Below are positions 2,190 to 61,158 of a stretch of DNA of 64,000 nt, in pieces (the stretch's first letter is position 1; every line of letters starts with the position of its first letter). The DNA comes from Candidatus Poribacteria bacterium (GTDB taxonomy: Bacteria; Poribacteria; WGA-4E; WGA-3G), in assembly GCA_022827885.1 (NCBI GenBank), contig JAJEIP010000072.1, forward strand, positions 16,508 through 80,507, written 5' to 3'. Below the pieces are notes generated by a model. The model did not search any database. It had not been told where the DNA came from and saw only the letters and a list, made by a program, of their open reading frames with translations. The position numbers and the translations under genes are program-made.

Positions 2190-2274
2190 GCCTGCAACAA
2201 CGGCGCAGGCGGGACCTCTAAAAGGAACGTATAAACAAGACCCGCGATGTTTAACCGCAAGGTAAAATTAAAAG
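2190..2274 (+). repeat. Composite dispersed repeat: GCCTGCAACAACGGCGCAGGCGG hairpin module, a 42-bp spacer, then the CCGCAAGGTAAAATTAAAA start-proximal element
   Basis: The 23-mer at 2190-2212 is identical to the one at 45145-45167. In both places the CCGCAAGG element follows exactly 42 bp downstream (2255-2274 and 45210-45229). Confidence 0.7.
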
Positions 2275-5200
2275 CCTTAAAAACGCAAAGTCTGTTGTTA
2301 AAAACTGGGATCATCTTTATCATTGCCCTCTGTTCATCGTCTGAAGTCGTCGTCAGTCGTATTGCCGAAGAAGAGACTGAACCTAAGAATAATCATCAGT
2401 CGTCAGTCGTAGGGGTTGGGTCACCCAACCCTTACAGAGATGATTCTGTTGAACAGGAATCCTCTTTAACGGATAACCGAGAACCGACGACTGAAAACGC
2501 TAAAAATGGATTTGGGTTATTCACCCGCAACCTCTTCGACAATGATAGCGAATCAAAGCACTTCATTTGGCAAGAGAAAAAAGAACAAATCGAGGTTCCT
2601 GAGCAGACAGCGGAGGAAGACCTCCTCATCCAACCCTACCTCGACAGTCTCCGGCACTGGCGGTATCCTCCCCATTTAACCGATCTCGATAAACTCTATG
2701 ACTGGAAACCAAGAGCGAAGCGTGACGAAAAAGGCATCGCTCTCCCGATGGATTCCAATCTCAGGATAACAGGTTTGCAATCTGTAACCGTAGAGGCAAA
2801 CAGGACCCACTACTTCGGTGACGGCGATCTGAACCGATACGGGGGTTACGGCTATGGTGGCGGATATGGAGGCTACTCATCAGGACTTGACTTGGGGCTC
2901 ACCTCGTCTTACGGTTACGAAGACTTCGGTTACGGCAGCAGCGGTTTTGGTGGCGGATACGGTTCAGGATATGGAAGTAGTTACGGTAGTTATGGTTCCA
3001 GCTACGGTTCGAGCTACGGCGGGTTCGGGGGTGGATACGGCAGTAGCGGTGTTCCACGCGCAAGTGGGTTTAACCTACGTCAAATACAGCAATTTGGGCT
3101 ACACGGTCGCGTGGGGCAACGGACGCATATCGCTGTAGACTATAGTGCTGGCGGCAGCGGCTTCGGTAGCGGTGGTTATGGCGGTGGATATGGTGGATAC
3201 GGCGGTGGGTACGGCGGCGGATATGGCATCGGCGGCACCAAGGAACAGAAGATTAAAATCTGGTACGAAGGGACACCCGAGAGTATAATAAAAACCATCT
3301 CCTTTGGCGACATCACACTCAGTTTACCGAATACCCGTTTTCTGAACATCAATCGGAATCTGTTTGGACTTGAAGGCGTCTTTGAGTGGAAAAACACACG
3401 TCTGACGGCGTTCGGTTCTCGGAGTAAGGGAATACGCGAGGTGCGTACGTTCCGGGGGCAGTCGCGGCGCGCTGGTGGCGGATACGGTTATGGACCCCGC
3501 GGGATCCAGATACCGGATACCAACTACGTTAAAAATCGGTTCTACCACATCCAAAAAGGTGAAGACGGCGAACTACACGACGCATATCTCCCTATCAAAT
3601 CAGGGAGCGAGCAAATTTTCATTGACGACGGCGTCGTCGGAAACAATCAGGGCGGTCAACGAACGAGTCGCGGCTACTTCAATCCCCAATACTCCGGTCA
3701 GGACTACAATATTGACTATGAAACCGGTGAAATAGAATTCCTATCTCCGATTTCTGCAAATTATACCATCGTCGTCTCGTATGAATATTTAGGCGGTGAT
3801 GGCGGCATCGTTGGTAAATCTGAAGTCTTTGTTGATGAAAACGGAGACGGAACACTTGACGAAGAGGGTGAGGAAATCGGCTATGTCGTGCTAAAAGAGA
3901 AGGGATTTCGCGGCACAGAGGCAACACACGTCTATAGCCTTGGCAACCGCAACATTAATCCACGTGACTTCACACTCACACTCCTCCGACAAGGACAGAG
4001 CGAAACCTTCCAGACGAATACCCGCTCTGTTCCGTATCTCGAAATTTTTGGGTTGGATCAGAACAGTGATGGTATTGTAGATGCCCAGTTTATAGACTAC
4101 GACAGAGGCTTACTCCGTTTCCCCACGACGGATCCGTTTCAAATTGTAGACCCAGCCCATCCATATTACGATTACCGCGATTCACTCAACAACACTGCCA
4201 TCTACCTCGAAGGTGTCCGAACAGATGCCCAAGTCTACACGATTATCGCGGACTACGCGTATCAATCAGAAACGTACAATGTAGGTTTGTTTGTGATTCC
4301 AAACAGTGAGACAGTCCGATTGAACGGGCAGCTCTTGACGCGCGATACCGACTATATGATGCTTTATGAGGTCGGTACTCTCCGATTCTTCAGACAACTC
4401 GATGAGTTTGATGAAATCGTTGTGGAATTTGAAAAGACACCCTTTGGTGGTTCATCACAACAAGCTGTAGCCGGCGTCTGGTTAGAGTACACACGCAAAC
4501 AGGAACCCAAATCCGATAGAGAACAGAGCCTTGAGGACAGATTCAATCGGTTAGGGGGCCTTCAAACAATGGACGCAGATATGCTGGGTGAAGGAACGGA
4601 TGCCTTCGGTAGAGGCGTGTCAGGGGGATTTCAACAGAGGAGCGGCGGTTTAGGGGGTTTCGGGAGCGGTTCTCGCTTCGGTAGGAGCAGTTTCGGGGGT
4701 GGATTCGGTGGCGGTTACGGCGGGGGTTATGGCGGCTACAGTAGTTTAGGCGGTCGCTCGCGAAGCTACTACGGTAGTTATGGCGGCGGAATGAACTATT
4801 TCAACCCGGTTTTTCAAAAGGGATTTTCGCTCTCAACGGGTTATATTCTGAACACCGGACAAAAACCAGCGGAAATACCAGATGTGAATAGCGTGCCAAA
4901 CCGCTTGCAAGCGTTCAACGTGAATACGAGTTTTGGACGGGAATTTAACGTCGCTGGTATTTTAAACCTATTGCCCTTTATTAACGTGAGAAACCTGCCA
5001 CTTTCAGTTGACTTCAGTGGAGAAGCGGCTTATTCACACAACAACCCAAACAGTATTGGCGTCGCGCTTATTGATAGCATGGAAGGGGCAAAGGACTCAA
5101 CGACCGTGCCGACATTAAAATACAATTGGAAACCGAGTAGTGTTCCATACGTATCGGAAAATGCACCAATACCGTCTGGAGATTCCGGTTACTACGTTAT

Positions 5201-8200
5201 ACCGACCGACGAGAATAGAGTGATCTTTAACGTTGTGCTGAAAGACAAAAACGAAACGGAAGCAATAGGCAACTATATGCGGAACCGCGATGTGCCAGCC
5301 TCATCAATTCAACCGCTCTCTCTCTCGACTGAAGAACGCCTCATTATGGAACTCGGCTACAATTTCACAGACGTGATCGCCGAGTGGGGCGGTTTTTCAA
5401 ACGGTCTCTCGGCATCCGGGGTAGACTATTCGGAACGTAGCTTCGTTGAAATTTGGATGCGCGTCCAAGGCGACGACAATGTGACGCTCCACTTGAATCT
5501 CGGGGTGGTGAACGAAGATACAGATGCCGACGAACGACTGGATAGCGAAGATCTCCCAGAAACGCTAACGGATACGAATGGAGACGGAAGTATTGATGCA
5601 TTGGATTTAGACCTGGAGAACCTTTCAGAGATCAATCGCTATCGTGGGAACGGCGCGCTCGATACAGGTGAAGACATCGGATGGGGACATAACGGGCCGC
5701 TTGAAAGAACATCTATCGGCGTAGGCAACCAGATTCTGGACAGCGAAGACCTCAACGGTGATGGGGTCCTTGATAGTATAGACGCATATTTTGAGGTAGC
5801 GATCCCACTCAATGAGATTCCGAAAGAATGGGTTAAAAGCAAAAATGCAAACGGTTGGATGTTCCTCAGTATTCCACTCTCTAAATTTAAGCCAGAGGGG
5901 TCTCGCCTGCCGAGTCTCGTTTTCGTGCAACACTTCCGATTCTGGTTGAGCAAAAACGCACCCGGTAATGTAGAAGGTTTATTGCAATGGGCGGATATTG
6001 AAATTGTTGGCAATAAATGGAAGCAGGGGATCATCACCCGGTCAAGTTCTGTAGGAGGGGTTTCTAACCCCGATTCCTTGGACGCCATAACGAACAACCC
6101 AGCACTCGCCTCGACCGGAAACACCTTGTCAACGAGTACAATTGTGGACGACACATTGGAAAAATTCATTGTTGGCACGAGGGATAACTTCAGTTATGAC
6201 GCGTATCAAAGTGCGTATCTGGATATCGAAGATAACGAGCTCTTCAAAAAATTACATCCATTCACAGCCACTTCACTCGGTTTTCAAACACAACAGCAAC
6301 GTGAACAGACACTGAGCCTCGAATATTACCTCTTTCCCGGCTCCTACGGTGTCACCTCGAAGCAATTGAAGGGCTTAACACAAAGTGAAGGACAAGATTT
6401 CAGCAAACACGATACACTTCGATTTTGGCTCTATGGGGACAAAAGCGACACAACCTTCGTTTTACAACTCGCGCCAACCGTCCGAACCGGCTATCGCAGC
6501 TCCTTCTATAGTTCAGATCCGTTTGTCAATCAGACAGAACAGGAAGAAGATATTAACGTTTTCGAGAATCTAACAGACTACTATGAATATACAGTCCCGA
6601 TTGACTTTGAGGGTTGGAAGTTAATTGAAATTGATTTGCGGGACCTTCGCAGAAACGACTATCCGGATGTTAATAGCGATCAACCATCTGTAGTCAGCAA
6701 TCAGCAAGAACCGGCTGCGGTAGAACCCCTTCCCACACCACCATCCGCCGAAATCGCAGAGGATGCCCCAGATGGACAGCCCGATGGTTTCACGATTCGC
6801 GGGAAGAATAGCATGCGGCTCTCCATCAAAAACATCGGCGGTATCCTCTTGGGTATACGGAACGATACTGGCGGTGAAATCAGTGGAGAAATCTGGGTAA
6901 ATGAGATTCATCTCGGTGATCCGCTCGTGCGTGCCGGATGGGCGCGTCGCGGTAATATGTCGGTGTCCCTCGGTAGAATTGTTAAATTACGCGGCGGCTA
7001 CGCAAGCCAAGACAAAGATTTTGAAAGCGGCGCGGGTGAAGTTGGTAGACAACGGCTCTCCTCACGCGGATATAGCACGACAAATAACGATTTTAATATC
7101 GATGCAGATGTTACGCTATTTCCATGGCTGCCGATCCGATACGGGATCCGACAGCAAGACACGGAAACCGAGAGCCAGCGCGGTAGCTACAGCAGCTTCC
7201 AGAGCGGGAAAAGTGAAATCCGTACCCGAGACATTTCTGTGCAGTTCATTCAAAACCCGTATCCGAATCTCGGCTTTGCTTACAACTACCAAGACTTTTG
7301 GAACGAACGTCAAGGCACACAAATTAGCCACCTTTATACGGGTAGCTTACGGTATGAACTCGGTTCAAAACTCGGGGTCAACGCGCAGTATCGGCACGAA
7401 GACATACTTGCCAAACCCGAAACGGCTACGGAGACAGCCTCGACTTCAACATCCTACTATAGTTACGGCTACGGTAGAAATCGAGATGAAAAAACAGATA
7501 GCGGCACCATAACATTTAATATTAATCCAACGAGTATCTTCAGTCTGAACCCCAGTTACGATGTCCGCCGGACGCTTGAAAGACGGGAAGATCCAAACGC
7601 CAGCACTTCACTTGCCGGCAATATAACGAATTTGGGTTTGGAAACCTCTCCCACAATCTCCGAATCCGAAGAAGAGACCCCCATCGAAGATGTTAAATGG
7701 TCAATTGCTGAGCGAGAACACCGATTGTCGCTGACCCCACGCTTAAACCGGGATCTGATCGGCATGCGCCCCACCGTAACAAGCCGTATGAGTTTTCGTG
7801 AAAACTGGTTCCGTGAACAGAAAAACGCTTCACTCAATGGAAACGTCAGTTTCGGCGTGAATCTCCGCGTTCAAAAATGGTTCGGATGGCTCCTCAAAGA
7901 AGGGAATGGAAGACAAGAAGAAGAGAAAGAGGGGGTACCGAACCTTCCAACCCCCGAACCTTCCAATCAAGAATCTCCTACGCTTCCAACGGATTCGGGG
8001 TTGGAAACCGATCCCGCGCCCACTCCTATAACTGATGACCTCAGTGCACAATTAAGGGAAAACGGTATTGACGAAACACAAATCCAAGAGTTAGAAGAGA
8101 ATCGGGGGGATTGGATCGAACGTGATAAAAGCGAGTTGCCACCTGTAGGCGCGAAAACCGGGGATAGCGGAACACAAGCGGGAACAGTTTCAGAGGTCAA

Positions 8201-11905: not shown

Positions 11906-11979
11906 AGCACGTAGCTTGGAACATAGTGGAAAGCGGGTCTACGAACAGGCACGTCAAATCCCTAAGCCCGCTCAACGAA

Positions 11980-11999
11980 CCGCAAGGAATAATTAAAAA
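11980..11999 (+). repeat. Start-proximal element CCGCAAGGAATAATTAAAAA directly abutting the ATG at 12000
   Basis: It is a member of the CCGCAAGG-TAAAAT-TAAAAA family. No separate SD lies between the element and the start codon. Confidence 0.7.
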
Positions 12000-14368: not shown

Positions 14369-14403
14369 TTACCAATTGTTGAATCAACCGTCTCTCGCGC
14401 CTG

Positions 14404-15714: not shown

Positions 15715-15734
15715 TTTTTAATTTTACCTTGCGG
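15715..15734 (-). repeat. Start-proximal element (minus-strand reading CCGCAAGGTAAAATTAAAAA) abutting the ispH ATG
   Basis: On the plus strand the sequence is tttttaattttaccttgcgg immediately 3' of the cat (ATG) at 15712-15714. It continues into a longer shared module, TTCCGTATATCCGCT...AAATGTAAAGCAAAG-ATTATGCC-N6-GGCATAAT. That module also appears at 55667-55745 and, reverse-complemented, at 29405-29460. Confidence 0.7.
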
Positions 15735-15929
15735 TTCGGTCAGGTCGGTTCAGAATTTGACGTGCCTTTCCGTATATCCGCTCTCCAAATGTAAAGCAAA
15801 GACAAATTATGCCATTTAGGGCATAATTTCATTACGAGCTACGGTCTCACGGCAAATAGATTTTAATTTTACCTTATTGAAAACTGATCACTGAAAGGGT
15901 TGCGTAGCCCCCCGAACCGATAATCATTT

Positions 15930-17840: not shown

Positions 17841-17933
17841 CTTCTGTTAACAAAATCCGAGAGGACTACCCTCCGATTCCGCTTTTCAGCACTCAGTCGT
17901 CCCTTTTTTCAGTCTTAAACTGCCCTTTAAACC

Positions 17934-18200
17934 TGTGGATAACCTGTGGATAACCTGTGGATAACTCAATTGGGAATTGTGGATAACTTGTGGATAACTC
18001 AAAATACACTTTTAGATTGTGGATAACCTGTGGACAACTCAAAAAGTTATCCACAGGTTATCCACAGGTTATCCACACCCTCAAGTCAATGGCCACAAGG
18101 GTTTAAGCGAGTTATCCACAATTTTACCGCCTACTACTACTCCTACTATGGTATATAATATATATATCGTAATTAGTTAAAGAATTAGCAATGTGGATAA
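17934..18200. other. oriC: 12 DnaA boxes (TTATCCACA) in phased convergent arrays plus an AT-rich DNA unwinding element
   Basis: TGTGGATAA boxes lie at 17934, 17945, 17956, 17978, 17989 and 18018, with a one-mismatch box at 18029; most are spaced 11 bp apart. Opposite-orientation TTATCCACA boxes lie at 18047, 18058, 18069 and 18112. An AT-rich stretch at 18121-18180 (tatggtatataatatatatatcgtaattagtt) follows. One more box lies at 18192-18200. Confidence 0.85.
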
Positions 18201-20375: not shown

Positions 20376-22904
<2,529 letters not shown>

Positions 22905-22928
22905 CAGTTATCAGTACCGAAAACTACC

Positions 22929-27346: not shown

Positions 27347-29221
27347 ATGGACTGGGTGGACAAGATGCACATCTCGACAATTCGGGGTGCTTTTAGCACA
27401 CAACAAAATAGAAGATGGTTGAGATTCAGAGGTTTGATTGTTGGGGCGGAAGCACCCAAGCAAAAACATTTCATTAGAACCTCACATCCACATTCGTTCT
27501 TTGCTAATGGTATGTTCGCGCGGGGTTTGCTTATAGCATTATTGCTTTTGGGGTATCTCTATGTAGGAGGGGTTAACGCCGATTCATATCTTTGTGGGAC
27601 ACCGCATCTATCAAATCCAAAGCATGTAATTGATGCTACAAACGCTCCACAACGGGTCCTTGGGCCCGGAAATCGGACTGCTCCTGCATTGCCTGTTGCT
27701 CCTGCGTTGCCAATTGGCACAGAGCGCACCTTCTTCGCCCCTGATTTTAGAAGCATGCAACAGTACACCGTCTCCGCTGTTCTTCGGGGTGTAGGTAGTT
27801 TCTGCTATGTTTTTGTTGAGGAAGCTGAGTGGAACAAACGAGTTACCGCCGGAACCGTTCAGGCAATGATCCGAGCGTTTGATACCGTCACACCCGCGAA
27901 TCCACAGCAAGGCATTTATCCGACGTTGACGAAGTTCTTCGGAGCCCCACCGGATATTGATGGAAACGGCAGGATTATCTTACTTCTCCTTAATATTCAG
28001 GATGCACACGGCGCGAACCGTTACACGGCGGGCTTTTTCAATCCTGCCGACCAGCAACGGGGTTTACTTCGAAACCCTGGATTTCGTGGGTTCCCAATTC
28101 GCAGTAACGAAGCAGAAATGCTATACATTGATACGCAACCTCTGAATCCGAACAGCGAAAGAGCACACAATGTTATTGCACATGAATTTCAACATCTTCT
28201 CAATTGGCGTCATGATGCCAGAGAAGTCACTTGGGTAGATGAAGGATGTGCAGTGTATGCCTCATTTCTCTGCGGTTATTCTGTACAGGAACATGTAGCA
28301 GCATTTGAAAAAATGCCATCTATCTCGCTTGTGACGTGGCCCGAGGGAAACGCAAACTCGCTTCCACACTACGGTGCAGCCTTCTTATGGATGCTCTATC
28401 TGCATGAGCAATACGGCGGGATAGAAACACTCATTGAAATTGTCCAAAATCGCGGCACATCGCTTACCGGTATCTCAGATGCCCTTGCATCTCGAGGTAT
28501 CATCAAAGCAATTCCTGACATTTTCATCGAATGGAAATTGGCTAACTATTTATCTGAGTATCGTGCTATTGGACTTTCCCTCACGCCTCGGCGTTGGTAT
28601 AATTCCTATCCAAGCGGCACGCAGCAGGGGCAGTTGAGCAACTTTTCGGCGGAATATATCGGCTTTAGAAATGCCGAAGGATTGACACTCGGATTCTCAA
28701 GCAGTTCTCCAGCGAGTAATGCTGTCCATGCCATTGAATTTCATAACACGGGTGCCGTCGATATCAACGAAATAAAATTGTCGGCGGGTAATGCGGGTTC
28801 CCTTGTGTTGTCGAATACCGCCGCAGAGGTCATTCTTGTTCCCAGTTTACAAATGGAAGCGATCAACCTCCATGGGCAAAGTTCGACATATCAATATAGT
28901 GCAACTCGCGGCGCGCATATTACCTTTACTACTACTGCGCTTCCGAATCCGGTGCATCCGCGCTACTGGGACATCATCGCTGAATCTACGGAGCCCCTCG
29001 TCGGATTGACCCCCACTGTAACGCTAATGCTCTCTGACCGTAAAACAGAACGACCGTATCGGGAAGCACAAGCGATGTATCTCATAACACAAGATATGCG
29101 GGATAACCCCTTGTACCGATTCTCGTTCCTTCTTGGACCAGAAATAGAACCGAAGTCTGTGATATATCAAGTTTCCCTTGATTCGAGACCCGTTAGTAAG
29201 GGAACCTTAACCGACTTTTGA
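27347..29221 (+). CDS. Secreted HExxH zinc metallopeptidase-like protein
   Basis: The HEFQHLL motif has a downstream Glu (VDEGCAVYA). A signal-anchor (MFARGLLIALLLLGYLYVGG) begins at the internal ATG at 27512, which may be the real start. Family assignment cannot be made without a database. Confidence 0.5.
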   Translation: MDWVDKMHISTIRGAFSTQQNRRWLRFRGLIVGAEAPKQKHFIRTSHPHSFFANGMFARGLLIALLLLGYLYVGGVNADSYLCGTPHLSNPKHVIDATNAPQRVLGPGNRTAPALPVAPALPIGTERTFFAPDFRSMQQYTVSAVLRGVGSFCYVFVEEAEWNKRVTAGTVQAMIRAFDTVTPANPQQGIYPTLTKFFGAPPDIDGNGRIILLLLNIQDAHGANRYTAGFFNPADQQRGLLRNPGFRGFPIRSNEAEMLYIDTQPLNPNSERAHNVIAHEFQHLLNWRHDAREVTWVDEGCAVYASFLCGYSVQEHVAAFEKMPSISLVTWPEGNANSLPHYGAAFLWMLYLHEQYGGIETLIEIVQNRGTSLTGISDALASRGIIKAIPDIFIEWKLANYLSEYRAIGLSLTPRRWYNSYPSGTQQGQLSNFSAEYIGFRNAEGLTLGFSSSSPASNAVHAIEFHNTGAVDINEIKLSAGNAGSLVLSNTAAEVILVPSLQMEAINLHGQSSTYQYSATRGAHITFTTTALPNPVHPRYWDIIAESTEPLVGLTPTVTLMLSDRKTERPYREAQAMYLITQDMRDNPLYRFSFLLGPEIEPKSVIYQVSLDSRPVSKGTLTDF

Positions 29222-29269
29222 TTATATCTTGCGGGGAAAGTGCATTACGACCTTTACGTGTATTCTTTA

Positions 29270-29460
29270 AATTCGCCTGCGTGTATTTGCTCGGGTGTTT
29301 CTGCGTATTTTTGCGTATTGTTGCAGGCGATCGTTTTTGATGTACAGATATATAACTCAGTCACACACTGTAACGGTTGGGTAACCCAACCCCTACGAAC
29401 CTGCCCGAAATGAAATTATGCCTTAAATGGCATAATTTGCCTTTGCTTTACATTTAGAGG
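29270..29460. repeat. Mosaic of dispersed repeat modules in one intergenic region
   Basis: CGCCTGCG...TGCGTATTGTTGCAGGCG matches 54757-54776. The GGTTGGGTAACCCAACC palindrome matches 2415-2433. The ATTATGCC-N6-GGCATAAT hairpin plus AAATGTAAAGCAAAG is the reverse complement of 15780-15830. Confidence 0.6.
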
Positions 29461-29486
29461 GCAGCCCAGGAGGCCATAGTTAAAAA

Positions 29487-40929: not shown

Positions 40930-42183
40930 TTACGGACACACGAATTTTCCCAGAATTTTTCGCACAGACGCACCTGTTGCTGAAGGCAGGTTCCCAGCCT
41001 GTCCGTGAAGGGACTCGTTTGCAAGAATTGCGAACGCTATCGCCTCTTTTGCATCCCCTGAAATGCCAGAGTTATCTACGGGTTCAACAACTGTATTTAC
41101 TAAGACCTCGCTGAGCCTTTGTATGAGGGTCTGGTTGTGTACACCGCCGCCACTCACGTAGAGTCTGTCTATTGGGTTCTGTTCCGACACGAATCGTGAA
41201 ATGTAAAGGGCAATCGTCTGGACTGTCAAGTCGGTCAATGTTGCAATAGCGTCGTTATCTGAAAGATTGTATTCACGACATGCCGTCAGACATTCCAGTG
41301 CGAAGGTGTGTCCGAACATCTCGCGTCCTGTGGTTTTTGGCGGAGGTAATTGGAAAAAAGGGTGCTTTAACCATTCGTCAATGAGCGGTTGGTGCGGGGT
41401 TCCCTGCGCGGCACGCCGACCGGCTTCGTCATAACGTTCTTTTCCATCCGTTATCTCGCTCACGACTGCATCAACACACATATTTCCCGGTCCTGTGTCT
41501 GCCGCAGCGACCGAATCAAACGATCCGTTAGCGGGAAGCACGGTGAGGTTCGCGATCCCTCCGATATTCAGGAGGCCCACTGTTTTAGCGGTGTCACGAA
41601 ACAACAGGTAGTCTGGATATGATACTAACGGGGCACCTTGCCCACCTGCCGCCATATCTGCTACTCGGAAGTCAGCAATAGTAGGAATACCGGTTTCGTG
41701 TGCAATGACCGCAGGTTCACCAATCTGCAGTGTTGACGGAATTTTAATTTTACCTTGCGGTTCGTTGAGGGAGGAACGCACGTCAAAGTCCAAACGCCTG
41801 TCGTTTCTCCGTGAGGAATCATTAAAAATGGGTAAGTGGTGAATCGTTTGACCGTGTGAGCCGATGAGGTCAATGTCTCTTGCAAATATTCCGTTTTTTT
41901 GTAGGGTATGTTTGGCAGCCTCCGCGAAGAGATGTCCGATGTAGAAGTTCATTTCACAAATGTCGTCAACGCGGCTCGTATCGGGCTGGCAGAGGGCGAG
42001 GATGCGTTGTGGCACATCGGGCGGAAAGGGAAAAGTCTCAAAAGCGATCAGGTCTACTGTCGTTTCTAAACCATGCCCCGTGATTTCAACAACGGCTGCA
42101 TCAATGCCATCAACAGAGGTGCCAGACATCAGACCGATAACATACTTTTTCTTTTTTTTGAGAAGTTGATAAAATTCTATCAT
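40930..42183 (-). CDS. anmK: Anhydro-N-acetylmuramic acid kinase
   Basis: The N-terminus is GLMSGTSVDGIDAAVVEI. The ASKHA fold is present. Its 417 aa is ~40 aa longer than typical. Confidence 0.85.
   Translation of the reverse strand: MIEFYQLLKKKKKYVIGLMSGTSVDGIDAAVVEITGHGLETTVDLIAFETFPFPPDVPQRILALCQPDTSRVDDICEMNFYIGHLFAEAAKHTLQKNGIFARDIDLIGSHGQTIHHLPIFNDSSRRNDRRLDFDVRSSLNEPQGKIKIPSTLQIGEPAVIAHETGIPTIADFRVADMAAGGQGAPLVSYPDYLLFRDTAKTVGLLNIGGIANLTVLPANGSFDSVAAADTGPGNMCVDAVVSEITDGKERYDEAGRRAAQGTPHQPLIDEWLKHPFFQLPPPKTTGREMFGHTFALECLTACREYNLSDNDAIATLTDLTVQTIALYISRFVSEQNPIDRLYVSGGGVHNQTLIQRLSEVLVNTVVEPVDNSGISGDAKEAIAFAILANESLHGQAGNLPSATGASVRKILGKFVCP
41741..41760 (-). repeat. Start-proximal element copy located inside anmK, in-frame (encodes NEPQGKIKI)
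   Basis: The minus-strand reading GAACCGCAAGGTAAAATTAAAAT is in the same orientation as the gene and is not followed by a start codon. Confidence 0.65.
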
Positions 42184-42291
42184 ATTTTTTTACAGGGTTC
42201 GGTTCGCCTGCTGCGCAGGAAACCTTCGGTCATTGGTTAACGGTTAAGAGATTTTCGTTTAGCAACGGAAATACCCTCTTGTAACTAACAA

Positions 42292-45130: not shown

Positions 45131-45144
45131 GTCCAAATTGCGTA

Positions 45145-45229
45145 GCCTGCAACAACGGCGCAGGCGGCTCGAACGCGAAAAGTGTTATATCACAAACGCC
45201 GTTACTTATCCGCAAGGTATAATTAAAAA
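45145..45229 (+). repeat. Composite repeat: GCCTGCAACAACGGCGCAGGCGG, a 42-bp spacer, then CCGCAAGGTATAATTAAAAA abutting the TTG start of pgi
   Basis: The architecture is identical to the copy at 2190-2274. The -10-like hexamer here is a perfect TATAAT. Confidence 0.7.
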
Positions 45230-46627: not shown

Positions 46628-46711
46628 CAGTTTTCAGCGTGACGCTTGTGGTGGTAACTGAAAATATACCTGCCACGATGTGCTTAACTGACAAATATTA
46701 ACTATAAAAAA

Positions 46712-48715
46712 ATGAGGAATAGACTCTCTGCTTTACGATTCCATGATAAAATATTTATCGCCTATGGTCTCGTCTTCCTTGTCATGTTTGGCGTTGTCTT
46801 TGGGAGTACCAGTTTCCTGATTCGGCTTGCTTTTAAGAGGGAAATTGACTCTTACGTTGAGAGGGTTCAAGCTCAAATTTCAAACAATTATCAAAAGTTG
46901 CTCAACAAAGTTCAAAAAGAAGTCCACGCCACAGCGAATGATGCCAGACTGCACCGCGTCATAGAAAGCGAATCGCGCTTCCCTTATCTACCGGCACCCG
47001 AATTTGATCTCTTGGAATATGGGACCGCGGATGGCAGATTGCTATATCCGGACACGAGGATAGGACAAAGGACGCGAACGTATAATTCGTTGGACGACGA
47101 TGAGGGGCATATACGGCTCAGAAGTATTCCGCTACAGAGTGATCTGGGGTTGCAGTATATGGTTCAGGTAACGGAAGCCGGCGAGTGGGGGTTTGTAACA
47201 GGAGGCTACCTCTTGCAGACGTGGCTGGAGACGACCCAAACCACCATCCAATCAGATGAGCATCCCATCTTCCTTGTAGGAAGGTCCCAAACGTCGGACG
47301 CAACATCCTTTGACACCGAACCGAAAGCGACAGCAGCAGAAGATTGGCTTCCGTTAAATTTCGCCTCTCAGACAGCGCAGGGGAGAGGATGGTTTAAATT
47401 ACTACCGAGTTGGCTCCCAGAGCGAAAAATCTTTTTACAGGGAACAGAAGAGACCGGCGGACGCGCTTTTACTGCTTTTCGGATAACACCTTTCAACTCA
47501 CCCTTCGCGACGACACGAGAGAAACCCACTGTTGGCTTAATCGTTGCATATTCGCATGAACGTCAAGTGAGATGGCAGCGGCAACTTACAATTACACTGC
47601 TTTTGAGTGGCATTGGTGGACTCGCGTTGGTTTATCTCATCAGTTATATCATTAGTCGTCGGATGACGCGTCCTATCGCGATTCTACGTGAGGGGGTTAG
47701 CCATATCGCGGCGGGGGATCTTGATCATCGCGTTAAAATCCAATCGCGTAACGAGGTGGGACAGTTGGCGGAAGGGTTCAATCAAATGGCACGGGACCTG
47801 AAACAAAGCATGGAGGAACGTATGGCGGCAGAGCGTGCCGCGACTTGGAGAGATGCCGCACGGCAAGTGGCACACGAAGTTAAGAACCCGCTCTTTCCGA
47901 TTCGGCTCTCTGTTGAAAACCTGCAGCAGGCGAAATCCAATCCTGAAGTTTTTGAGCAAATATTCAGTGAATGTACGGACACAGTTATTGAAGAAGTGGA
48001 TCGGATCGGTAAACTCATTGATGAGTTCCATCAATTCGCGCGAATGCCGAAACCTCAGCGAAAATGGAGCCAATTGAACGACATTGTGAGAACTGTTCTG
48101 ACACTCTACACCGGTAGACACATACCTGACCTTGAGCAGGAAAATGAAGTCGCACCAATGAGTCCAGAGCAGGTGGACTCGGTACTACAGGATTCCACTG
48201 AGAAGTTCTGGCTTGAAAACATCTCGAAAATTAAAGTTAAGACTGAATTAGACCTGCTGCCTCTACTTTTAGTTGATCCGGAACAGATTACACAGGCACT
48301 TGGCAACCTCCTGAAAAATGCAATTGAAGCGATGCCTGAAGGTGGATTGCTTAAGGTGAAAACCTATTTCACACCAAATGGCAGTCCGTCAGAGGAAGAA
48401 AATGATAGCAACCGTCATGCCCGGAAAGTCATTGATGGCACGGTTTCACTGGAAATCCAAGATACGGGGTACGGTATGTCCGAGGAGACTATGGCGAATC
48501 TCTTTGTGCCTTATTACACGACAAAATCAGAGGCGAATGGTAGAGGACTCGGCGTGCCAATTGTTAGAAGGATCGTCACAGAGCATGGTGCCGATATAGA
48601 CTTCCAAAGCACTGAAGGCGAAGGCACGACTGTCCGTATCCATTTTCCAACGCATCAAGGCACTCGCTCCGAGGAGTTTACATCGGCGACTGAAGAATTA
48701 ATACCACGACTCTAA
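46712..48715 (+). CDS. Sensor histidine kinase (2 TM, periplasmic sensor domain, HAMP, HisKA, HATPase_c)
   Basis: The HAMP domain is IAAGDLDHRVKIQSRNEVGQLAEGFNQMARDL. The H-box is HEVKNPLFPIRLSVENL. The G-boxes are DTGYGMSEE and GRGLGVPIV. Confidence 0.85.
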   Translation: MRNRLSALRFHDKIFIAYGLVFLVMFGVVFGSTSFLIRLAFKREIDSYVERVQAQISNNYQKLLNKVQKEVHATANDARLHRVIESESRFPYLPAPEFDLLEYGTADGRLLYPDTRIGQRTRTYNSLDDDEGHIRLRSIPLQSDLGLQYMVQVTEAGEWGFVTGGYLLQTWLETTQTTIQSDEHPIFLVGRSQTSDATSFDTEPKATAAEDWLPLNFASQTAQGRGWFKLLPSWLPERKIFLQGTEETGGRAFTAFRITPFNSPFATTREKPTVGLIVAYSHERQVRWQRQLTITLLLSGIGGLALVYLISYIISRRMTRPIAILREGVSHIAAGDLDHRVKIQSRNEVGQLAEGFNQMARDLKQSMEERMAAERAATWRDAARQVAHEVKNPLFPIRLSVENLQQAKSNPEVFEQIFSECTDTVIEEVDRIGKLIDEFHQFARMPKPQRKWSQLNDIVRTVLTLYTGRHIPDLEQENEVAPMSPEQVDSVLQDSTEKFWLENISKIKVKTELDLLPLLLVDPEQITQALGNLLKNAIEAMPEGGLLKVKTYFTPNGSPSEEENDSNRHARKVIDGTVSLEIQDTGYGMSEETMANLFVPYYTTKSEANGRGLGVPIVRRIVTEHGADIDFQSTEGEGTTVRIHFPTHQGTRSEEFTSATEELIPRL

Positions 48716-48756
48716 CACGGAACTCCCAAGATTTTTATCACGAAACTGAAACTTAT

Positions 48757-48776
48757 CCGCAAGGTAAAATTAGAAA
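48757..48776 (+). repeat. Start-proximal element CCGCAAGGTAAAATTAGAAA directly abutting the ATG at 48777
   Basis: The downstream ORF begins METILIVDDE, a canonical REC-domain N-terminus, so the start is certain. No separate SD is present. Confidence 0.75.
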
Positions 48777-54623: not shown

Positions 54624-54877
54624 TTTTTAATTTTACCTTGCGCGGGAACAACGGTCGTTAGAACTTTAACGTGCGTTCTTTAGATCCGCCTGCGCGTTTT
54701 TGCAATGTAATACAAGGAATGGATTTAGTCTATTCCCAGACTAAATCCGGTGTTTATGCGTATTGTTGCAGGCTCACGTTTTTGATGTGATGAAGAACAT
54801 GAAGTGCCACTTATTTTAATTTTGCCTTGCGGAGGAACAATGGGCGTTAGAACTTTAACGTGCGTTCCTTTTATCGT
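54624..54877. repeat. Segmental duplication: ~60-bp unit TTTTAATTTTACCTTGCG(C/G)GG(G/A)AACAA(C/T)GG(T/G)CGTTAGAACTTTAACGTGCGTTC at 54624-54682 and 54814-54877
   Basis: The second copy contains the RBS, the ATG and the first 11 codons of the TPR lipoprotein gene. The first copy is a start-less pseudo-copy in the amidohydrolase upstream region. Confidence 0.7.
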
Positions 54878-55664
54878 AATAGGACTCTTAACCTATTTGC
54901 TGTTTGGCTGTAATCCTTCTGATCAAACACAGCAACAGAATCGGGAACTGCAACGCGATGTGTTAAGACTCAGAATGGGGCAAGCACTCAATCCGACAGA
55001 TGCGGAAGGGTATATTCAACTCGGTATAGCCTATCGTGAACTGGGCGAATATGAGAACGCTATGGAGTCTTTTCAAAATGCTATCGCGCTTGATGATAGG
55101 CACCATCACGCCTATAACAACCTCGGTTTGGTTTACGCCGATCTCGGCTTGTATATCCTTGCGATTGAGACCTTCCGCACCGCACTTGAGCTATCCCCGG
55201 GAAACCCTGCCTTCTACAACAATCTCGGCTATGCTTACGACATGACAGACCAGTTCGACGAGGCGCTTGCCGCCTTTCAAAACGCAATTGAGACGGAACC
55301 GACCTTTGCTGATGCCTACTACAACATGGCGAGTGCCTACCTCCACCGAGAAATGTATCAGGATGCTATTCAAAATTATGAGGCAGCCCTTGAGATAGAG
55401 GAAGGGGATGCCGATACCTATTTTAACCTCGGTCTCGCTTACGAGGAGAGCGGTGAATTTCTTCGCGCCATCCAATCCTACGAAAAGGGCTTATCCCTTG
55501 ATGACAGTGATCCAGAAGCCTATTATCGTCTCGCACAAGTGTATGAAAAAAATAACGATCCGCTCATGATGCGTCGCTATCTGGAGATCTTCTTGGAACG
55601 CGCACAAGGTATTCCTTATCTTGAAGAACAGATCCGTACTGCCGAGAAGATGTTTGATAGGTAG
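54840..55664 (+). CDS. TPR-repeat lipoprotein
   Basis: The start ATG at 54840 lies 5 nt after GGAGG. The lipobox is LLFGC. At least six TPR units are present (YIQLGIAYRELGEYENAMESFQNAIAL...). Confidence 0.7.
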   Translation: MGVRTLTCVPFIVIGLLTYLLFGCNPSDQTQQQNRELQRDVLRLRMGQALNPTDAEGYIQLGIAYRELGEYENAMESFQNAIALDDRHHHAYNNLGLVYADLGLYILAIETFRTALELSPGNPAFYNNLGYAYDMTDQFDEALAAFQNAIETEPTFADAYYNMASAYLHREMYQDAIQNYEAALEIEEGDADTYFNLGLAYEESGEFLRAIQSYEKGLSLDDSDPEAYYRLAQVYEKNNDPLMMRRYLEIFLERAQGIPYLEEQIRTAEKMFDR

Positions 55665-55666
55665 TA

Positions 55667-55760
55667 TTTTCTAATTTTCCTTGCGGTTCGGTAAGACAGG
55701 ATTTGGCAGGAAAGCTGTTTTCCGTATATCCGCTTCCCACTTCGTTCCCAGCTGCGCGCT
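55667..55760 (-). repeat. Orphan copy of the composite repeat (TTTTCTAATTTTCCTTGCGGTTCGG...TTCCGTATATCCGCT...)
   Basis: It shares the CCGCAAGG module and the TTCCGTATATCCGCT module with 15715-15790. No gene start is adjacent. It sits at the left edge of the AT-rich R-M island. Confidence 0.6.
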
Positions 55761-55770
55761 TTGGCTTTGA

Positions 55771-59529: not shown

Positions 59530-59997
59530 CTACGTCTCCTTCACGTACAGAATGCCGGCTTCGACTTTCGTTTGGAGTTTCTGCAACGGACGCGGCGGGG
59601 GGCCGGCAACAACGATTCCGTTCTTGTCGAACACCGCGCCGTGACACGGACAGAGGAAGGATTCCTTCTGTTCATCCCATCGGACAAGACACCCCAAATG
59701 CGAACAGGTTCGGGAGAAGACATCCCACTCTCCCTTCCCTGCGTCAGTTACGTAGACAGAGCGTTTTTTCGTCGCTTTGACCCAGCCGTCTTTTGCAGTG
59801 AAGGTATAGTCCACCTTTTTAAAACGGCTGTTTTTGAGCCGGGCGGCGAGACCCAAGTCCACCCATTTCGACTCCCCTTTCTTGAAGGCAGGCGAAATCG
59901 CAAAGCCGATAAGTGGGATACCCGCAGCGAGGCTCAGCACTCCCCCGATAAGGGCTGTTGCGATTTCTAAAAATGAGCGTCTGCCCTTCTTCTCCAT
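59530..59997 (-). CDS. Rieske [2Fe-2S] iron-sulfur subunit
   Basis: It has a Tat signal (RRSFLEIA). The Rieske boxes are CSHLGC and CPCHGAVF. It lies immediately upstream of, and is co-oriented with, cytochrome b. Confidence 0.9.
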   Translation of the reverse strand: MEKKGRRSFLEIATALIGGVLSLAAGIPLIGFAISPAFKKGESKWVDLGLAARLKNSRFKKVDYTFTAKDGWVKATKKRSVYVTDAGKGEWDVFSRTCSHLGCLVRWDEQKESFLCPCHGAVFDKNGIVVAGPPPRPLQKLQTKVEAGILYVKET

Positions 59998-60009
59998 CCA
60001 TTTTCTCCT

Positions 60010-61077
60010 TTACGGCTTCTTCCACGTTTGCCCTTCAAAGGGTTTGCGCAAATCATATCGTCCTTCTACTAAGACCGGCAGCGTGCCGTCGTTAACCATG
60101 AGTTCAAGCGGCAGTTCCTTGGTTTCCATCGGGATATGGACGACATCCTTGATCCGCAAGGATTCATAGATAGCCATCATGATTTCCAGCGTGTAGCGCG
60201 CCTGAACGCCACTGCCGCGATGGTCAGGGATTTCACCTTCGATCCACTCGATGAATTCATCGTACTGATTTTTGGTTTGTGGCGGCGGCGTAATGGTTTG
60301 CCAGCCCTGCGCGTCCCCATTTTGGAGCAGAAGGGTGCCGTCAGGTCCGTTACGGATTTGTCCCTCTGTTCCAGCGATTGTGGGGTGGGAGACTGACGGT
60401 TCCGGCAGATCGCCTTCATAAATACCACGAGCACCCCCTTCAAAGCAGACTAATCCCATACAGAGGTCCTCACAAATCGTGCGGCGTTCCCAGCGATCGG
60501 TCGTCCGAGAGGTCTGCCCAATGACCCAAAGTGTTTCAGGGTCGGACAGCATGAAACGCCAACCATCGATTGCGTGGGTGCCTGTGTTCAGCAATCCTGC
60601 GTGTCTTTTCGCACTGTGGTGGACGGTTGTTGGTTCACCAATCGCCCCTGCGGCAACGAGCCTACGGGTCTCTATATTTGCCGGGGCATATCTACCTTGG
60701 TGGCCGATGATAAGTTTGACATCGTTCTCTTCACAGGCAGCGAGCATCGCGTCGGCTTGTCCGAGTGAGGCTGCCATCGGCTTCTCACCGATAATACCTT
60801 TCACGCCTGCTTTCGCCGCTGCGACCGTGGCTTCCGCCCGCGGTCCCTGCCATGTTGTGATACTGACGATGTCCAAATCCTCTTTCGCCAACATTTCATC
60901 AACGTCGGTGTAGATAGCCGGAACATCGTATTCGTCTGAGACGCGTTGCGCTGCTTCTTCAAAGATGTCCATTGCTGCGACAACTTGTGCCTTCGGATGT
61001 GCGGTCCATGCTCTGGAATGAGATCTCCCCATTCCACCGCAGCCAATGATTCCAATGCGATAGGTCTGATTTGCCAT
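60010..61077 (-). CDS. Gfo/Idh/MocA family oxidoreductase
   Basis: The Rossmann motif is RIGIIGCGGMGRSHSRAW. Its length is 355 aa. A GAAGGAGG RBS is present. Confidence 0.8.
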   Translation of the reverse strand: MANQTYRIGIIGCGGMGRSHSRAWTAHPKAQVVAAMDIFEEAAQRVSDEYDVPAIYTDVDEMLAKEDLDIVSITTWQGPRAEATVAAAKAGVKGIIGEKPMAASLGQADAMLAACEENDVKLIIGHQGRYAPANIETRRLVAAGAIGEPTTVHHSAKRHAGLLNTGTHAIDGWRFMLSDPETLWVIGQTSRTTDRWERRTICEDLCMGLVCFEGGARGIYEGDLPEPSVSHPTIAGTEGQIRNGPDGTLLLQNGDAQGWQTITPPPQTKNQYDEFIEWIEGEIPDHRGSGVQARYTLEIMMAIYESLRIKDVVHIPMETKELPLELMVNDGTLPVLVEGRYDLRKPFEGQTWKKP

Positions 61078-61138
61078 CTGTTTCGCCTCCTTCTATATTA
61101 GCAAGGATTCTATCAATTTTTGGGCTTTCGGTCAATAA

Positions 61139-61158
61139 TTTTCTGATTTTCCTTGCGG
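61139..61158 (-). repeat. Degenerate start-proximal element (minus-strand CCGCAAGGAAAATCAGAAAA) 60 bp upstream of the Gfo/Idh/MocA gene
   Basis: It has the same orientation as the downstream gene, which here has its own SD. Confidence 0.5.

Follow-up and report, generated by a model that had tools for sequence, protein, structure and literature searches.

The motif CCGCAAGGTAAAATTAAAAA, repeated through the 64,000-nucleotide stretch of DNA analysed here (the window), is the conserved 3' end of a modular, mosaic intergenic repeat of ~88 nt found across Candidatus Poribacteria, a phylum of sponge symbionts. We see about an even chance that this 3' end is a promoter lacking a -35 hexamer and giving rise to leaderless mRNAs, and the repeat is probably a portable expression cassette. 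The initial annotation had described an element of 20-26 nt, which turns out to be too short, as the 20-mer is only the tail of the unit.

Anatomy of the repeat

From 5' to 3', the unit comprises a short A-rich lead-in (CAAAAC), a tetranucleotide nnAG (mostly GTAG), a hairpin, a middle of ~42-45 nt that is conserved in length and variable in sequence, and the tail CCGCAAGG-TAAAAT-TAAAAA. Copies are least alike in the middle (mean pairwise identity 0.50), intermediate in the hairpin (0.66) and most alike in the tail (0.90), although the last figure is inflated because loci were retrieved by an exact 18-mer. In 97 of 112 copies, the tail is accompanied by the hairpin and middle upstream of it. 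Small modules are nested within some hairpin loops, and tandem arrays and a few inverted pairs occur. A literature search found no published description of the repeat.

The hairpin stem covaries, with 10-32 double-sided changes per pair, and the length from hairpin to tail is conserved, as might be expected of a structured cis-regulatory RNA such as a riboswitch-like leader, or of a small-RNA gene. This explanation is nevertheless extremely improbable, considering that RNAalifold returned a 4-bp stem only and no consensus fold for the middle, that folding z-scores are modest (mean -1.4), that no Rfam family matched the repeat even at E values up to 5, and that the downstream genes are unrelated while other copies lie inside ORFs or face gene ends.

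Copies in the window

Allowing up to 3 mismatches, the 20-mer has 8 matches in the window (2255+, 11980+, 15715-, 41741-, 45210+, 48757+, 54624- and 54813-), against 0.01 expected from shuffles. With two shorter variants, CCGCAAGGAAAATYAGAAAA, at 55667- and 61139-, these account for all ten copies listed in the initial annotation; further copies or remnants were detected at 15860-15875(-), 29216-29328(-), 41771-41828(+) and ~42184-42226(-). The five copies reported as flush with start codons were confirmed as such, all five ORFs being supported by Pfam.

Two full elements carry a type I hairpin and share the 23-mer GCCTGCAACAACGGCGCAGGCGG at 2190 and 45145, 42 nt upstream of the motif, in agreement with the identical hairpin noted earlier. 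The one at 45142..45229 (+; nhmmer E=4.2e-18) begins 11 nt past the stop of the upstream ORF (a 12-nt offset), and its 3' module CCGCAAGGTATAATTAAAAA is flush with TTG 45230 of a pgi-like gene (PGI). The other, at 2188..2274 (+; E=1.9e-15), consists of the hairpin GCCTGCAACAACGGCGCAGGC, a 42-nt middle and CCGCAAGGTAAAATTAAAAG; here the motif is present, but it falls among the opening codons of the longest ORF (ATG 2247, MFNRKVKLKALK..., MFNRKVKLK...), or alternatively 20 nt upstream of TTG 2295. A type II hairpin, GTAGCTTGGAACATAGTGGAAAGC, is seen in the full element at 11911..11999 (+; E=3.1e-15), whose 5' end lies 5 nt past the stop of a GH2 gene and whose 3' module CCGCAAGGAATAATTAAAAA is flush with ATG 12000 of a 2-hydroxyacid dehydrogenase.

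The full element at 15715..15842 (-) has a nested insert of ~40 nt in its hairpin loop (TATGCCCTAAATGGCATAATTTGTCTTTGCTTTAC) and ends in a perfect 20-mer flush with the ATG (15714) of ispH/lytB; an isolated partial 3' module, AAGGTAAAATTAAAAT, is located upstream of it at 15860..15875 (-). At 48708..48776 (+), an element without a hairpin and with a subfamily 3 middle overlaps the end of the upstream gene (stop 48715) by its 5' part, and its 3' module CCGCAAGGTAAAATTAGAAA is flush with ATG 48777 of a sigma54 response regulator (METILIVDDE). The element at 54624..54773 (-) contains a nested insert of ~60 nt in the hairpin loop, including a 12-bp palindrome, and its 3' module GCGCAAGGTAAAATTAAAAA is flush with the ATG of an amidohydrolase (54623). 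A second copy in the same orientation, at 54813..54870 (-), lies 189 nt upstream and is 87% identical to it over 62 nt; the reverse complement of this second copy provides the GGAGG (54831-54835), the ATG (54840) and the first codons of a divergent TPR lipoprotein.

The copy at 41741(-) is present as annotated, but it is situated in frame within the anmK coding sequence. It is part of a composite of two elements (41741..41829, -) with their 3' modules pointing outward, which encodes IFNDSSRRNDRRLDFDVRSSLNEPQGKIKI and corresponds to the full inverted pair of locus L115 with an internal deletion. A shrunken remnant, CCTGCGCAGCAGGCGAACCGAACCCTGTAAAAAAAT, is flush with the anmK ATG itself (42184..42226, -), where the orthologue in L116 has a full element.

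Some copies have no gene to serve. The degenerate element at 29216..29328 (-; E=5.9e-06), a hairpin with a nested insert followed by CCCGCAAGATATAATCAAAA, drives no gene, since at its 3' end it runs into the stop codon of a convergent gene (27347-29221). Similarly, the full element with the variant tail CCGCAAGGAAAATTAGAAAA at 55667..55753 (-; E=1.9e-09) lies between convergent genes, with 2 nt separating its 3' end from the TPR gene's stop codon, and it therefore lacks a downstream gene; the claim that every copy is oriented toward its nearest downstream gene fails here. Finally, only the 3' module, CCGCAAGGAAAATCAGAAAA, is found at 61139..61164 (-); between it and the gene 60010-61077 come a canonical TTGACC-17-TAGAAT promoter and a GGAGG SD. 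Ordinary GGAGG-type SDs precede other genes in the window, as previously stated.

Coupling to start codons

Exact matches to the 18-mer were found in more than 114 stretches, nearly all of them from Poribacteria MAGs, and these represent at least 23 assemblies. Across ~180 copies from many Poribacteria, the exact abutment seen in the window recurs. An ATG stands directly 3' of the motif in about a third of copies (55/180), and in 53 of these 55 it begins an ORF of 124 codons or more. ATG is not favoured after copies located elsewhere, which indicates that the ATG belongs to the gene and not to the repeat. Upstream stop codons keep no fixed distance to the hairpin; only the 3' end of the repeat is positioned precisely.

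TAAAAT is separated from the start by six nucleotides in 57 of 196 copies, by five in 4 and by seven in 9, a spacing far tighter (81% at one value) than that of SDs in the same genomes, where GGAG/GAGG starts spread over -14 to -9. Variants that have lost 1 nt still keep CCGCAAGG 12 nt from the ATG. In the subset of copies that played no part in retrieval, 22 of the 24 that abut a start have an intact CCGCAAGG, compared with 30 of the 44 others; roughly half of these abutting copies begin the hexamer with A instead of T. ATG accounts for 53 of the 56 start codons adjoining the element, and GTG for none, whereas 157 of 204 SD-led starts are ATG (Fisher p=0.002). Leaderless initiation prefers AUG, and the bias fits this preference. 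In some copies a separate SD and start follow immediately after the element (TTAAAAAGGAGAAAACATG in L050 and L004; also L048, L101 and L109), an arrangement compatible with a promoter that has a very short leader. The tight spacing and the ATG excess could partly stem from shared descent or recombination instead of functional constraint. This weighs against the promoter reading, as does the fact that we know of no process that places the tail exactly at an ATG.

Promoter or ribosome-binding region

Among 148 high-confidence starts free of the element, one position alone, -12, stands out for TANNNT (13 cases versus ~2-3 at the others), and the cases include textbook promoters such as TTGAAA-17-TACAAT-6-ATG, TTGACT-17-TATGAT-6-ATG and TTGCAT-17-TATAGT-6-ATG. 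The TAAAAT of the element thus sits at what appears to be the leaderless -10 position of these genomes. The same geometry is a signature of leaderless genes in Deinococcus and mycobacteria, and in D. radiodurans a -10 motif adjoining the ORF suffices as a promoter and depends only weakly on a -35 (PMC12340547, PMC3160421, PMC4007540). The earlier proposal of a portable 5' module with a -10-like hexamer at leaderless distance is strengthened by the abutment, the -12 peak and the replacement of upstream regions between orthologues, but no -35-like hexamer is found 16-18 nt away within the element and a sigma70 scan made no call.

The main alternative, to which we assign a smaller but real chance, is that the element lies within a longer 5' UTR or spacer and that its tail is a ribosome-binding region, with AAGG as a weak SD 12 nt from the start, the A/U-rich TAAAATTAAAAA as an unstructured S1-binding or Kozak-like enhancer, and the hairpin stabilising or ending the upstream message. 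AAGG at -16 to -13 is in register with an AAGGAGG SD and is equivalent to a GGAG start at -14, inside the observed SD range. The six nucleotides TAAAAA are strongly conserved, which a promoter does not require, and match the A-richness that ordinary leadered genes show at -6 to -2 (50-57% A in element-free genes, many having TTAAAAA then ATG without CCGCAAGG); this conservation and the register of AAGG favour a translation-level reading. The constancy of the 12-nt distance, the presence of AGCAAGGAGTAAAGTACTATG in L027 in place of the element of its orthologue L102, and the location of several copies close behind co-directional genes (at 48757 the upstream stop is inside the element) agree with it. 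The last 12 nt are predicted to be unpaired in essentially all of 71 copies, though this is trivial for an A/U-rich run. On the other hand, AAGG lies 3 nt farther out than the modal SD position, and the element's spacing is far tighter than that of SDs in these genomes. Conservation extends over the entire CCGCAAGG, although the tail can pair with the anti-SD through only 4 nt; a weak SD does not explain the absence of GTG and would make the separate GGAG SD after some copies redundant.

Under the promoter reading, TAAAAT would act as a -10 hexamer with no need of a -35, preceded by CCGCAAGG at -20 to -13, in which the G at -14 is also part of the TGn and RGG found ahead of further -10-like hexamers in these genomes. 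RNA polymerase would begin transcription 7 nt downstream, on the A of the ATG itself, and the resulting leaderless mRNA would be translated without a Shine-Dalgarno sequence.

The contiguous, near-invariant CCGCAAGG beside a -10-like hexamer is conserved beyond the needs of a housekeeping promoter, and a rare variant has the 8-mer inverted in the same place (GCCTTGCGAAYAATTAAAAA). Both could point to a binding site for a dedicated alternative sigma factor or global transcription factor co-regulating hundreds of genes, the rest of the repeat being incidental. We consider this very unlikely, as the downstream genes are functionally unrelated (ispH, pgi, response regulator, amidohydrolase, anmK), the linkage of tail, hairpin and middle indicates copying and not convergence, and no candidate factor was found.

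Spread and orthologue comparisons

The distinct 5' module described initially does exist at gene starts, but it forms the tail of a longer, REP/BIME-like mosaic that also occurs elsewhere: 38 of 181 copies (21%) face the 3' end of a convergent gene, 14 are inside long ORFs and ~19 neighbouring pairs are direct tandems, so that many copies drive nothing. Other copies provide the N-termini of signal peptides. The nnAG tetranucleotide and the hairpin with its covarying stem resemble REP elements. A selfish or neutral REP/BIME- or MITE-like repeat without any role in expression, reaching gene starts by insertion or recombination preference and loss of harmful copies, would be consistent with these features and with the nested modules, arrays and inverted pairs, with copies that can be ~90% identical in non-homologous flanks of different species, and with in-frame insertions that vary AnmK between 395 and 454 aa among Poribacteria. 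It is an unlikely account all the same. Terminal inverted repeats are present in only 2 of 187 single copies, no transposase was found, nor any Y1/RAYT-like ORF in 0.96 Mb (weak tests), and no recent burst is visible, the middles being only ~50% identical. Moreover, adjacent ATGs are nearly always real gene starts, and conservation is far higher in the tail than elsewhere in the element, and higher still where a copy abuts a start.

Mobility, as initially suggested, is supported by nested copies and by presence or absence of the element between orthologues, though transposition machinery was not detected; we infer that the repeat may have spread or been exchanged by duplication, recombination or some transposition system. 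Selection would then keep copies whose tail stands at exactly 6 nt from an ATG or immediately precedes a leader with an SD, and the remaining copies would decay in convergent-gene gaps, tandem arrays and tolerant protein loops.

Elements are gained and lost between orthologues, and SD-containing upstream regions are replaced right up to the ATG. In L032 the element is flush with the ATG, whereas its orthologue L054 has AAAGGAGAAACTGTC flush with the ATG. For ispH, the element adjoins the ATG in the window, L078 and L139, while L142 (92% amino acid identity) has GACGGGAGCGCGA there. Since this housekeeping gene must still be expressed where the element has replaced an SD-containing region, the tail has to supply expression signals, contrary to a purely selfish repeat. 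The hairpin types differ between orthologous ispH elements, a point more in keeping with a selfish repeat. Identity between orthologous copies is 0.84-1.0, compared with 0.79-0.90 for the coding sequences beside them.

The dispersed repeat and its anatomy

A short dispersed motif ending in TAAAAT-TAAAAA had been reported in the window by the initial annotation, and the motif proves to be real: the 20-mer CCGCAAGGTAAAATTAAAAA, allowing up to 3 mismatches, gives 8 matches as against 0.01 expected from dinucleotide shuffles of the 64-kb window, and shorter variants, CCGCAAGGAAAATYAGAAAA, make up two copies, at 55667(-) and 61139(-). All ten reported copies are there, the one at 41741(-) sitting within the reading frame of anmK. 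Five copies terminate precisely where a start codon begins, as had been claimed, and the ORFs they abut have clear Pfam identity, namely a 2-hydroxyacid dehydrogenase (start 12000), LytB/IspH (15714), PGI (45230, TTG), a sigma54 response regulator (48777) and an amidohydrolase (54623). An identical 23-mer hairpin does lie at 2190 and 45145, each 42 nt 5' of the motif. Two other claims did not survive, since the copy at 55667(-) aims at the stop codon of a convergent TPR gene instead of facing a downstream gene, and the repeat is much longer than the 20-26 nt assigned to it. A profile search of the window added a degenerate copy (29216-29328(-)), an isolated tail (15860-15875(-)) and an inverted partner (41771-41828(+)), and alignment of orthologues placed a shrunken remnant flush against the ATG of anmK. 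The best-supported reading is that the motif is the tail of a phylum-wide mosaic repeat, hereafter the element, and that this tail would serve as an expression signal.

One genome per species was scanned with the exact 18-mer CGCAAGGTAAAATTAAAA of the tail, which listed more than 114 stretches, nearly all from Candidatus Poribacteria MAGs and covering at least 23 assemblies with several closed chromosomes among them; the names given for AnmK homologues are Poribacteria and the sponge Geodia, so that the window is DNA of a poribacterial symbiont of sponges. Nineteen matches in viral contigs were set aside as chance occurrences in coding or AT-rich DNA, having no upstream modules. ORFs and start codons were called mechanically. 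As all comparative loci (numbered with the prefix L) were fetched by the exact 18-mer, tail conservation and copy density are biased upward. A density of about 10-13 copies in 64 kb would amount, by extrapolation, to several hundred in each genome.

Alignment of 196 copies, from the window and 114 loci, gave a commonest unit length of 88-89 nt (65/102 standard copies). A weakly conserved lead-in, CAAAAC(C), marks the 5' edge and is followed by a tetranucleotide nnAG, mostly GTAG; a 71-copy alignment shows no variation at A3 or G4 and has GTAG in most copies. Next comes a hairpin of two main types, type I (GCCTGC-AACAACGGC-GCAGGC) or type II (GYNC-GTAAYGNARTGGA-GNRC), then GG and a middle of 42-45 nt in about three sequence subfamilies, and at the 3' end the tail, (GAA)CCGCAAGG-TAAAAT-TAAAAA. 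Mean pairwise identity is 0.66 for the hairpin, 0.50 for the middle and 0.90 for the tail, the last value being inflated because the loci were retrieved by the tail. When copies were retrieved by the 5' two-thirds alone, nearly all of them still had the tail, which is present 3' of 97/112 hairpins.

The hairpin stem pairs by compensation (GCCTGC/GCAGGC, GCCC/GGGC, GTCC/GGAC, GCAC/GTGC and GCTT/AAGC), with 10-32 double-sided changes per base pair. An RNAalifold search of the middle found no common fold, and predicted folding is only modestly above that of shuffled sequence; that the element as a whole is a structured RNA fits poorly and seems most improbable. In Rfam, no family overlaps the window elements, whether the gathering threshold is applied or E is relaxed to 5, and 18 loci had no match at the gathering threshold. 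A 'Poribacteria-1' motif was absent from the searchable literature and no such model matched, and a literature search for Poribacteria repeats or promoters returned nothing relevant.

Single copies and direct tandems dominate the arrangement. Amongst about 200 copies there are about 19 direct tandems and only 5 pairs with outward-facing tails; direct arrays of whole units occur in L096, L099 and L102, and the tail itself is occasionally duplicated in tandem with a period of 13-25 nt. Small secondary modules lie inside the hairpin loops of elements (window 15780-15839 / 29403-29462 and 29305-29343 / 54750-54788), among them GCAAAGACAAATTATGCCATTTAGGGCATAATTT, ATACGCAGAAACACCCAAGCAAAAACAC (present both ways round) and, at 54720-54749, a palindrome of 12 bp, and point to nested insertion or modular recombination. 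A rare tail variant (L061 6213-6500, L072 and L089) has an 8-mer inverted in place, giving GCCTTGCGAAYAATTAAAAA for CCGCAAGGTAAAATTAAAAA, which hints that this 8-mer may be active in either orientation.

Coupling to start codons

The spacing between TAAAAT and the gene was taken up to the first start codon with an ORF of 100 codons or more behind it. It is 6 nt for 57/196 copies; 4 further copies have 5 nt and 9 have 7 nt. Amongst the 181 classifiable copies, the tail adjoins a start codon in 61; in 32 the start comes 2-40 nt further downstream, in most cases after a second, duplicated tail or a GGAG SD of its own, and in 18 it comes at 41-200 nt. Another 38 point towards a convergent gene's 3' end, long ORFs contain 14 and the remaining 18 fall outside all these classes. 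A co-oriented gene start is found within 200 nt downstream in 61% of copies.

An ATG follows the tail immediately in 55/180 copies, and 53 of these 55 open ORFs of at least 124 codons. Copies away from genes show no preference for ATG after the tail, and therefore the ATG is a part of the gene and not of the repeat, which rules out that it belongs to the latter. A cassette spanning from stop to start is also ruled out, as the distance from the hairpin to the upstream stop codon is not fixed; precise placement concerns the 3' end only. Element-adjacent starts are ATG in 53/56 cases and never GTG, as compared with 157/204 ATG for SD-led starts (p=0.002). That the tail is a signal dedicated to one regulon fits poorly, and we regard it as very unlikely.

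Native start signals and the nature of the tail

Start signals native to these genomes were studied in 148 high-confidence starts that do not carry the element. In this sample SD motifs (GGAG/GAGG) begin at -14 to -9, positions -6 to -2 are 50-57% A, and TANNNT peaks at the single position -12, with 13 occurrences as against about 2-3 elsewhere. Judged by their sequence, the members of this peak include what look like textbook promoters placed to begin transcription on the ATG: TTGAAA-17-TACAAT-6-ATG (L011 and L013), TTGACT-17-TATGAT-6-ATG (L057), TTGCAT-17-TATAGT-6-ATG (L091) and TTGTTG-17-TATAAT-6-ATG (L030). The TAAAAT of the element sits exactly at the native position (TANNNT at -12 to -7). 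A -10 motif adjoining the ORF at such a distance is a signature of leaderless genes, and in Deinococcus radiodurans a -10 next to the ORF is enough to act as a promoter and depends only weakly on a -35 (PMC3160421, PMC4007540, PMC12340547). Of the portable -10 module 6-7 nt from the start that had been proposed initially, the TAAAAT-N6-start geometry stands and the promoter activity is putative.

No -35 hexamer is seen 16-18 nt 5' of TAAAAT, where the consensus reads ACnCnC, and a sigma70 promoter scan made no call at any element; the same scan calls canonical promoters at 61135(-) (TTGACC-17-TAGAAT) and 53082(+) (TTGCAA-17-TATAAT). The identity of the element as a canonical sigma70 promoter was rejected on account of the missing -35. 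A sigma54 or ECF promoter in the middle (GGCACG..., GGAAC...CGTT) was also discarded, its spacing and key bases varying by eye among the subfamilies. A Logan contig beginning 27 nt 5' of ispH was considered as a transcription start and is most likely an assembly break at the repeat.

We see a roughly even chance that the tail is a -35-less promoter for leaderless mRNAs. This is favoured because the tail geometry matches the native -12 peak exactly, the spacing is precise to one nucleotide, ATG is used almost exclusively, some copies precede a separate SD, and the element replaces SD regions all the way to the ATG. The chief rival would make the tail a ribosome-binding region within a leadered mRNA, with AAGG as a weak SD and an A-rich enhancer after it. 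The conservation of TAAAAA, the generally A-rich context before starts and the register of AAGG with an AAGGAGG SD all speak for it; the complement of the tail to the anti-SD is only AAGG, 12 nt from the ATG and in register with TAAGGAGGT, at the far edge of SD spacing in these genomes; SD-led initiation would call for 4-5 or more complementary nt placed 5-10 nt before the start. Ribosome binding of this kind is possible, and we hold it only tentatively.

Gain, loss and in-frame copies

Orthologues that differ in the element are informative. At ispH it is flush against the ATG in the window, L078 and L139, with differing hairpin types, while L142 (92% protein identity) has GACGGGAGCGCGA directly before the ATG, L140 is similar and L141 has TACAATTAGAAAG. 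In L140-L142, where ispH is without the element, the gene immediately before ispH, on the same strand, is an apparent rpmH (ribosomal protein L34, by eye); the window has in its place 728 nt rich in repeats and a dnaA that diverges from ispH, and this local rearrangement coincides with the element. In L032 the element stands where L054 has AAAGGAGAAACTGTC before the ATG, and upstream similarity stops at the ATG. The start of anmK carries a full element flush with the ATG in L116, a remnant in the window and L115, and none in L117. That the element is purely a selfish repeat is unlikely, because housekeeping genes that lost their SD region to it must still be expressed.

Some copies are read as protein. 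In AnmK the loop between HGQTIHHLP and PSTLQIGEP varies among Poribacteria, in proteins of 395-454 aa. Its commonest DNA form has just the 30-nt tail in frame (…TEPQGKIKI…); L115 has two whole elements in inverted orientation, the window has the same type of inverted pair with an internal deletion, and in other species the tail is read in a different frame (…TARKIRN…). Element DNA is inserted in two reading frames, as nested or inverted copies, and no target duplication is visible at these insertions. The window copy had raised the idea of a MITE with inverted ends, which was rejected: single copies have no inverted tail, one within 200 nt upstream being found for only 2/187 copies, both at irrelevant distances. 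The anmK case is no evidence for a MITE because it is an inverted pair of whole elements.

Signal peptides offer a second example. Read as aCC CGC AAG GTA AAA TTA AAA, the tail gives RKVKLK, a basic n-region of the usual kind, and at 2247 of the window the 2262-aa ORF begins with this frame open (MFNRKVKLK…; MFNRKVKLKALKTQSLLLKTGIIFIIALCSS; region 2247-2340). In L053 (minus strand, ~850-1000) the element gives both the ATG and a basic n-region (MKSALFTRKVKLK…), replacing the N-terminus present in the orthologue of L056. The divergent TPR lipoprotein of the window (54804-54900) most likely starts at ATG 54840 (MGVRTLTCVPFIVIGLLTYLLFGC...); its GGAGG SD (54831-54835), ATG and first ~10 codons are the reverse complement of the copy at 54813(-), and therefore the antisense strand of the repeat, too, can provide an SD, a start codon and part of a signal-peptide coding sequence.

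The conservation of orthologous copies is roughly on a par with that of the adjacent coding sequence. A typical pair of copies shares about 50% identity in the middle and reaches about 90% only in a 22-nt tail; some copies in unrelated flanks of different species are about 90% identical, and some non-orthologous pairs reach 88-92% over 88 nt. Transposases were sought in 0.96 Mb of loci by regular expression for an HUH/Y-motif ORF and by tblastn with approximate sequences of IS200 TnpA and E. coli RayT, and neither search gave a match in these loci. An IS630-like transposase by anmK in L117 was dismissed as a partner, its flanks having no similarity to the element. It is rather unlikely that the element is a self-propagating leaderless-promoter cassette set exactly on start codons by a dedicated mechanism, one that would either be site-specific or use the 5' ends of leaderless mRNAs as its template. 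Such a cassette would have rewired the expression of perhaps 5-10% of the genes of the phylum, replacing SD starts, donating signal-peptide N-termini and inserting peptides into enzymes.

Comparison with known systems

In function the element may be likened to putative mobile promoters (PMPs) combined with the leaderless architecture of Deinococcus and Actinobacteria, in which the -10 lies next to the ORF. PMPs, described by Matus-Garcia, Nijveen and van Passel in 2012, are 50-100 nt of homologous non-coding DNA with at least 80% identity directly 5' of non-homologous genes, the largest family having 93 members, and were interpreted as recyclable promoter modules (PMC3488235). The element too is homologous non-coding DNA upstream of non-homologous genes; however, it is well conserved only in the ~20-26-nt tail, with a middle about 50% identical, and its family is much larger, is common to a phylum and is positioned against the ATG to the exact nucleotide. 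Leaderless promoters of Deinococcus-Thermus and Actinobacteria share a TANNNT fixed a few nt before the ATG, the lack of an SD and little or no dependence on a -35, and the same single-position peak is present in Poribacteria genes devoid of the element. Those promoters each evolved in place and share the hexamer only, whereas the hexamer of the element is embedded in a 20-nt invariant block that ends an 88-nt dispersed repeat.

In structure the element resembles REP, BIME and REPIN sequences of Enterobacteria and Pseudomonas, with a 5' GTAG-like tetranucleotide by an imperfect palindrome, several stem variants, mosaics with other short or nested motifs, tandem clusters and high copy number. 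REPs, however, are mostly found at gene 3' ends or within operons and are not known to carry a start-proximal module. A REPIN is an inverted pair acting as the replicative unit, single copies being remnants, and RAYT is the cognate Y1 transposase flanked by the repeats. Inverted pairs of the element are rare, and no RAYT was found in the loci with the approximate queries; identity with REPINs was rejected on the rarity of the defining unit, 5 among ~200 copies. Rickettsia palindromic elements (RPEs) are short palindromic repeats in frame in coding genes, where they add peptides in tolerated loops, and are not known to be associated with start codons or promoter-like tails. The element likewise lies in frame in the AnmK loop and in signal-peptide N-termini without disrupting ORFs, but such copies are a minority (14/181 within long ORFs). 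The Correia elements of Neisseria (CREE) are bounded by terminal inverted repeats of 26 bp, come with TA target duplications and create promoters at variable distances from genes. Like these and other promoter-carrying MITEs, the element is a small, non-autonomous intergenic repeat putatively able to create promoters for neighbouring genes; unlike CREE, its single copies have no inverted ends and abut the ATG exactly.

Implications

The element is a very abundant, phylum-conserved repeat that docks on start codons, for which no published description was found. If the tail is a leaderless promoter, one copy-and-paste module would equip hundreds of unrelated genes of Poribacteria with signals to start both transcription and translation, placed to the single nucleotide, and would amount to a natural 'universal expression cassette'. 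Promoter propagation would then have reshaped gene starts on a large scale, Shine-Dalgarno replacement included, and Poribacteria would join the phyla with a leaderless-gene signature. Start-codon calls in Poribacteria MAGs could also be improved with the element as a simple marker in the sequence: it points to true ATGs, and ORF callers are led astray by it where they take the repeat for coding sequence. The in-frame insertions of AnmK and the element-derived signal-peptide N-termini are cases of repeat DNA recruited into proteins. For work on metagenomes, the 20-mer comes near to being a tag specific to Poribacteria.

Other features of the window

The region 16443-18084 is a probable replication origin. 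It consists of dnaA (16443-17840), whose orthologue carries Bac_DnaA, followed at 17914-18084 by a dense cluster of DnaA boxes (TGTGGATAAC) with perfect 33-nt inverted arms; a weak match to the AsdA antisense RNA lies inside dnaA at 16932-17012. Downstream of the cluster are a RecF/SMC-like ORF and ORFs of 836 and 848 aa (20394-25475), putatively gyrB and gyrA by position. A further pair of DnaA boxes is found at 42476-42496.

Other dispersed repeats with GTAG and a hairpin are GTAGGAGGGGTTTCTAACCCCGAATCC, with 5 copies (6039, 11327, 11407, 35339 and 51586), several of them inside long ORFs, and the palindrome GTAGGGGTTGGGTCACCCAACCC, at 2407-2437 and 29368-29398. These repeats suggest several REP-like families in this genome and perhaps a RAYT-type system. 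Short runs of the type CTGTTAACTGTTAACTGAAGAC or CTGATAACTGA are present in the window (14399-14432, 46606-46637 and 63422-63453) and at many loci, at gene 3' ends and just upstream of elements. More than one of their reading frames holds stop codons, and they have the look of a spacer motif that recurs between genes. Between 41500 and 61400, terminator-like sites (a hairpin and a T run) number 19 as against 20.5 expected in shuffles; canonical terminators may be rare in this organism. Two giant ORFs span 2247-9035 (2262 aa) and 33449-39772 (2107 aa), the first having Gly/Tyr-rich repeats of the GGYGG type (direct repeats D2 and D3, 2836-4720).
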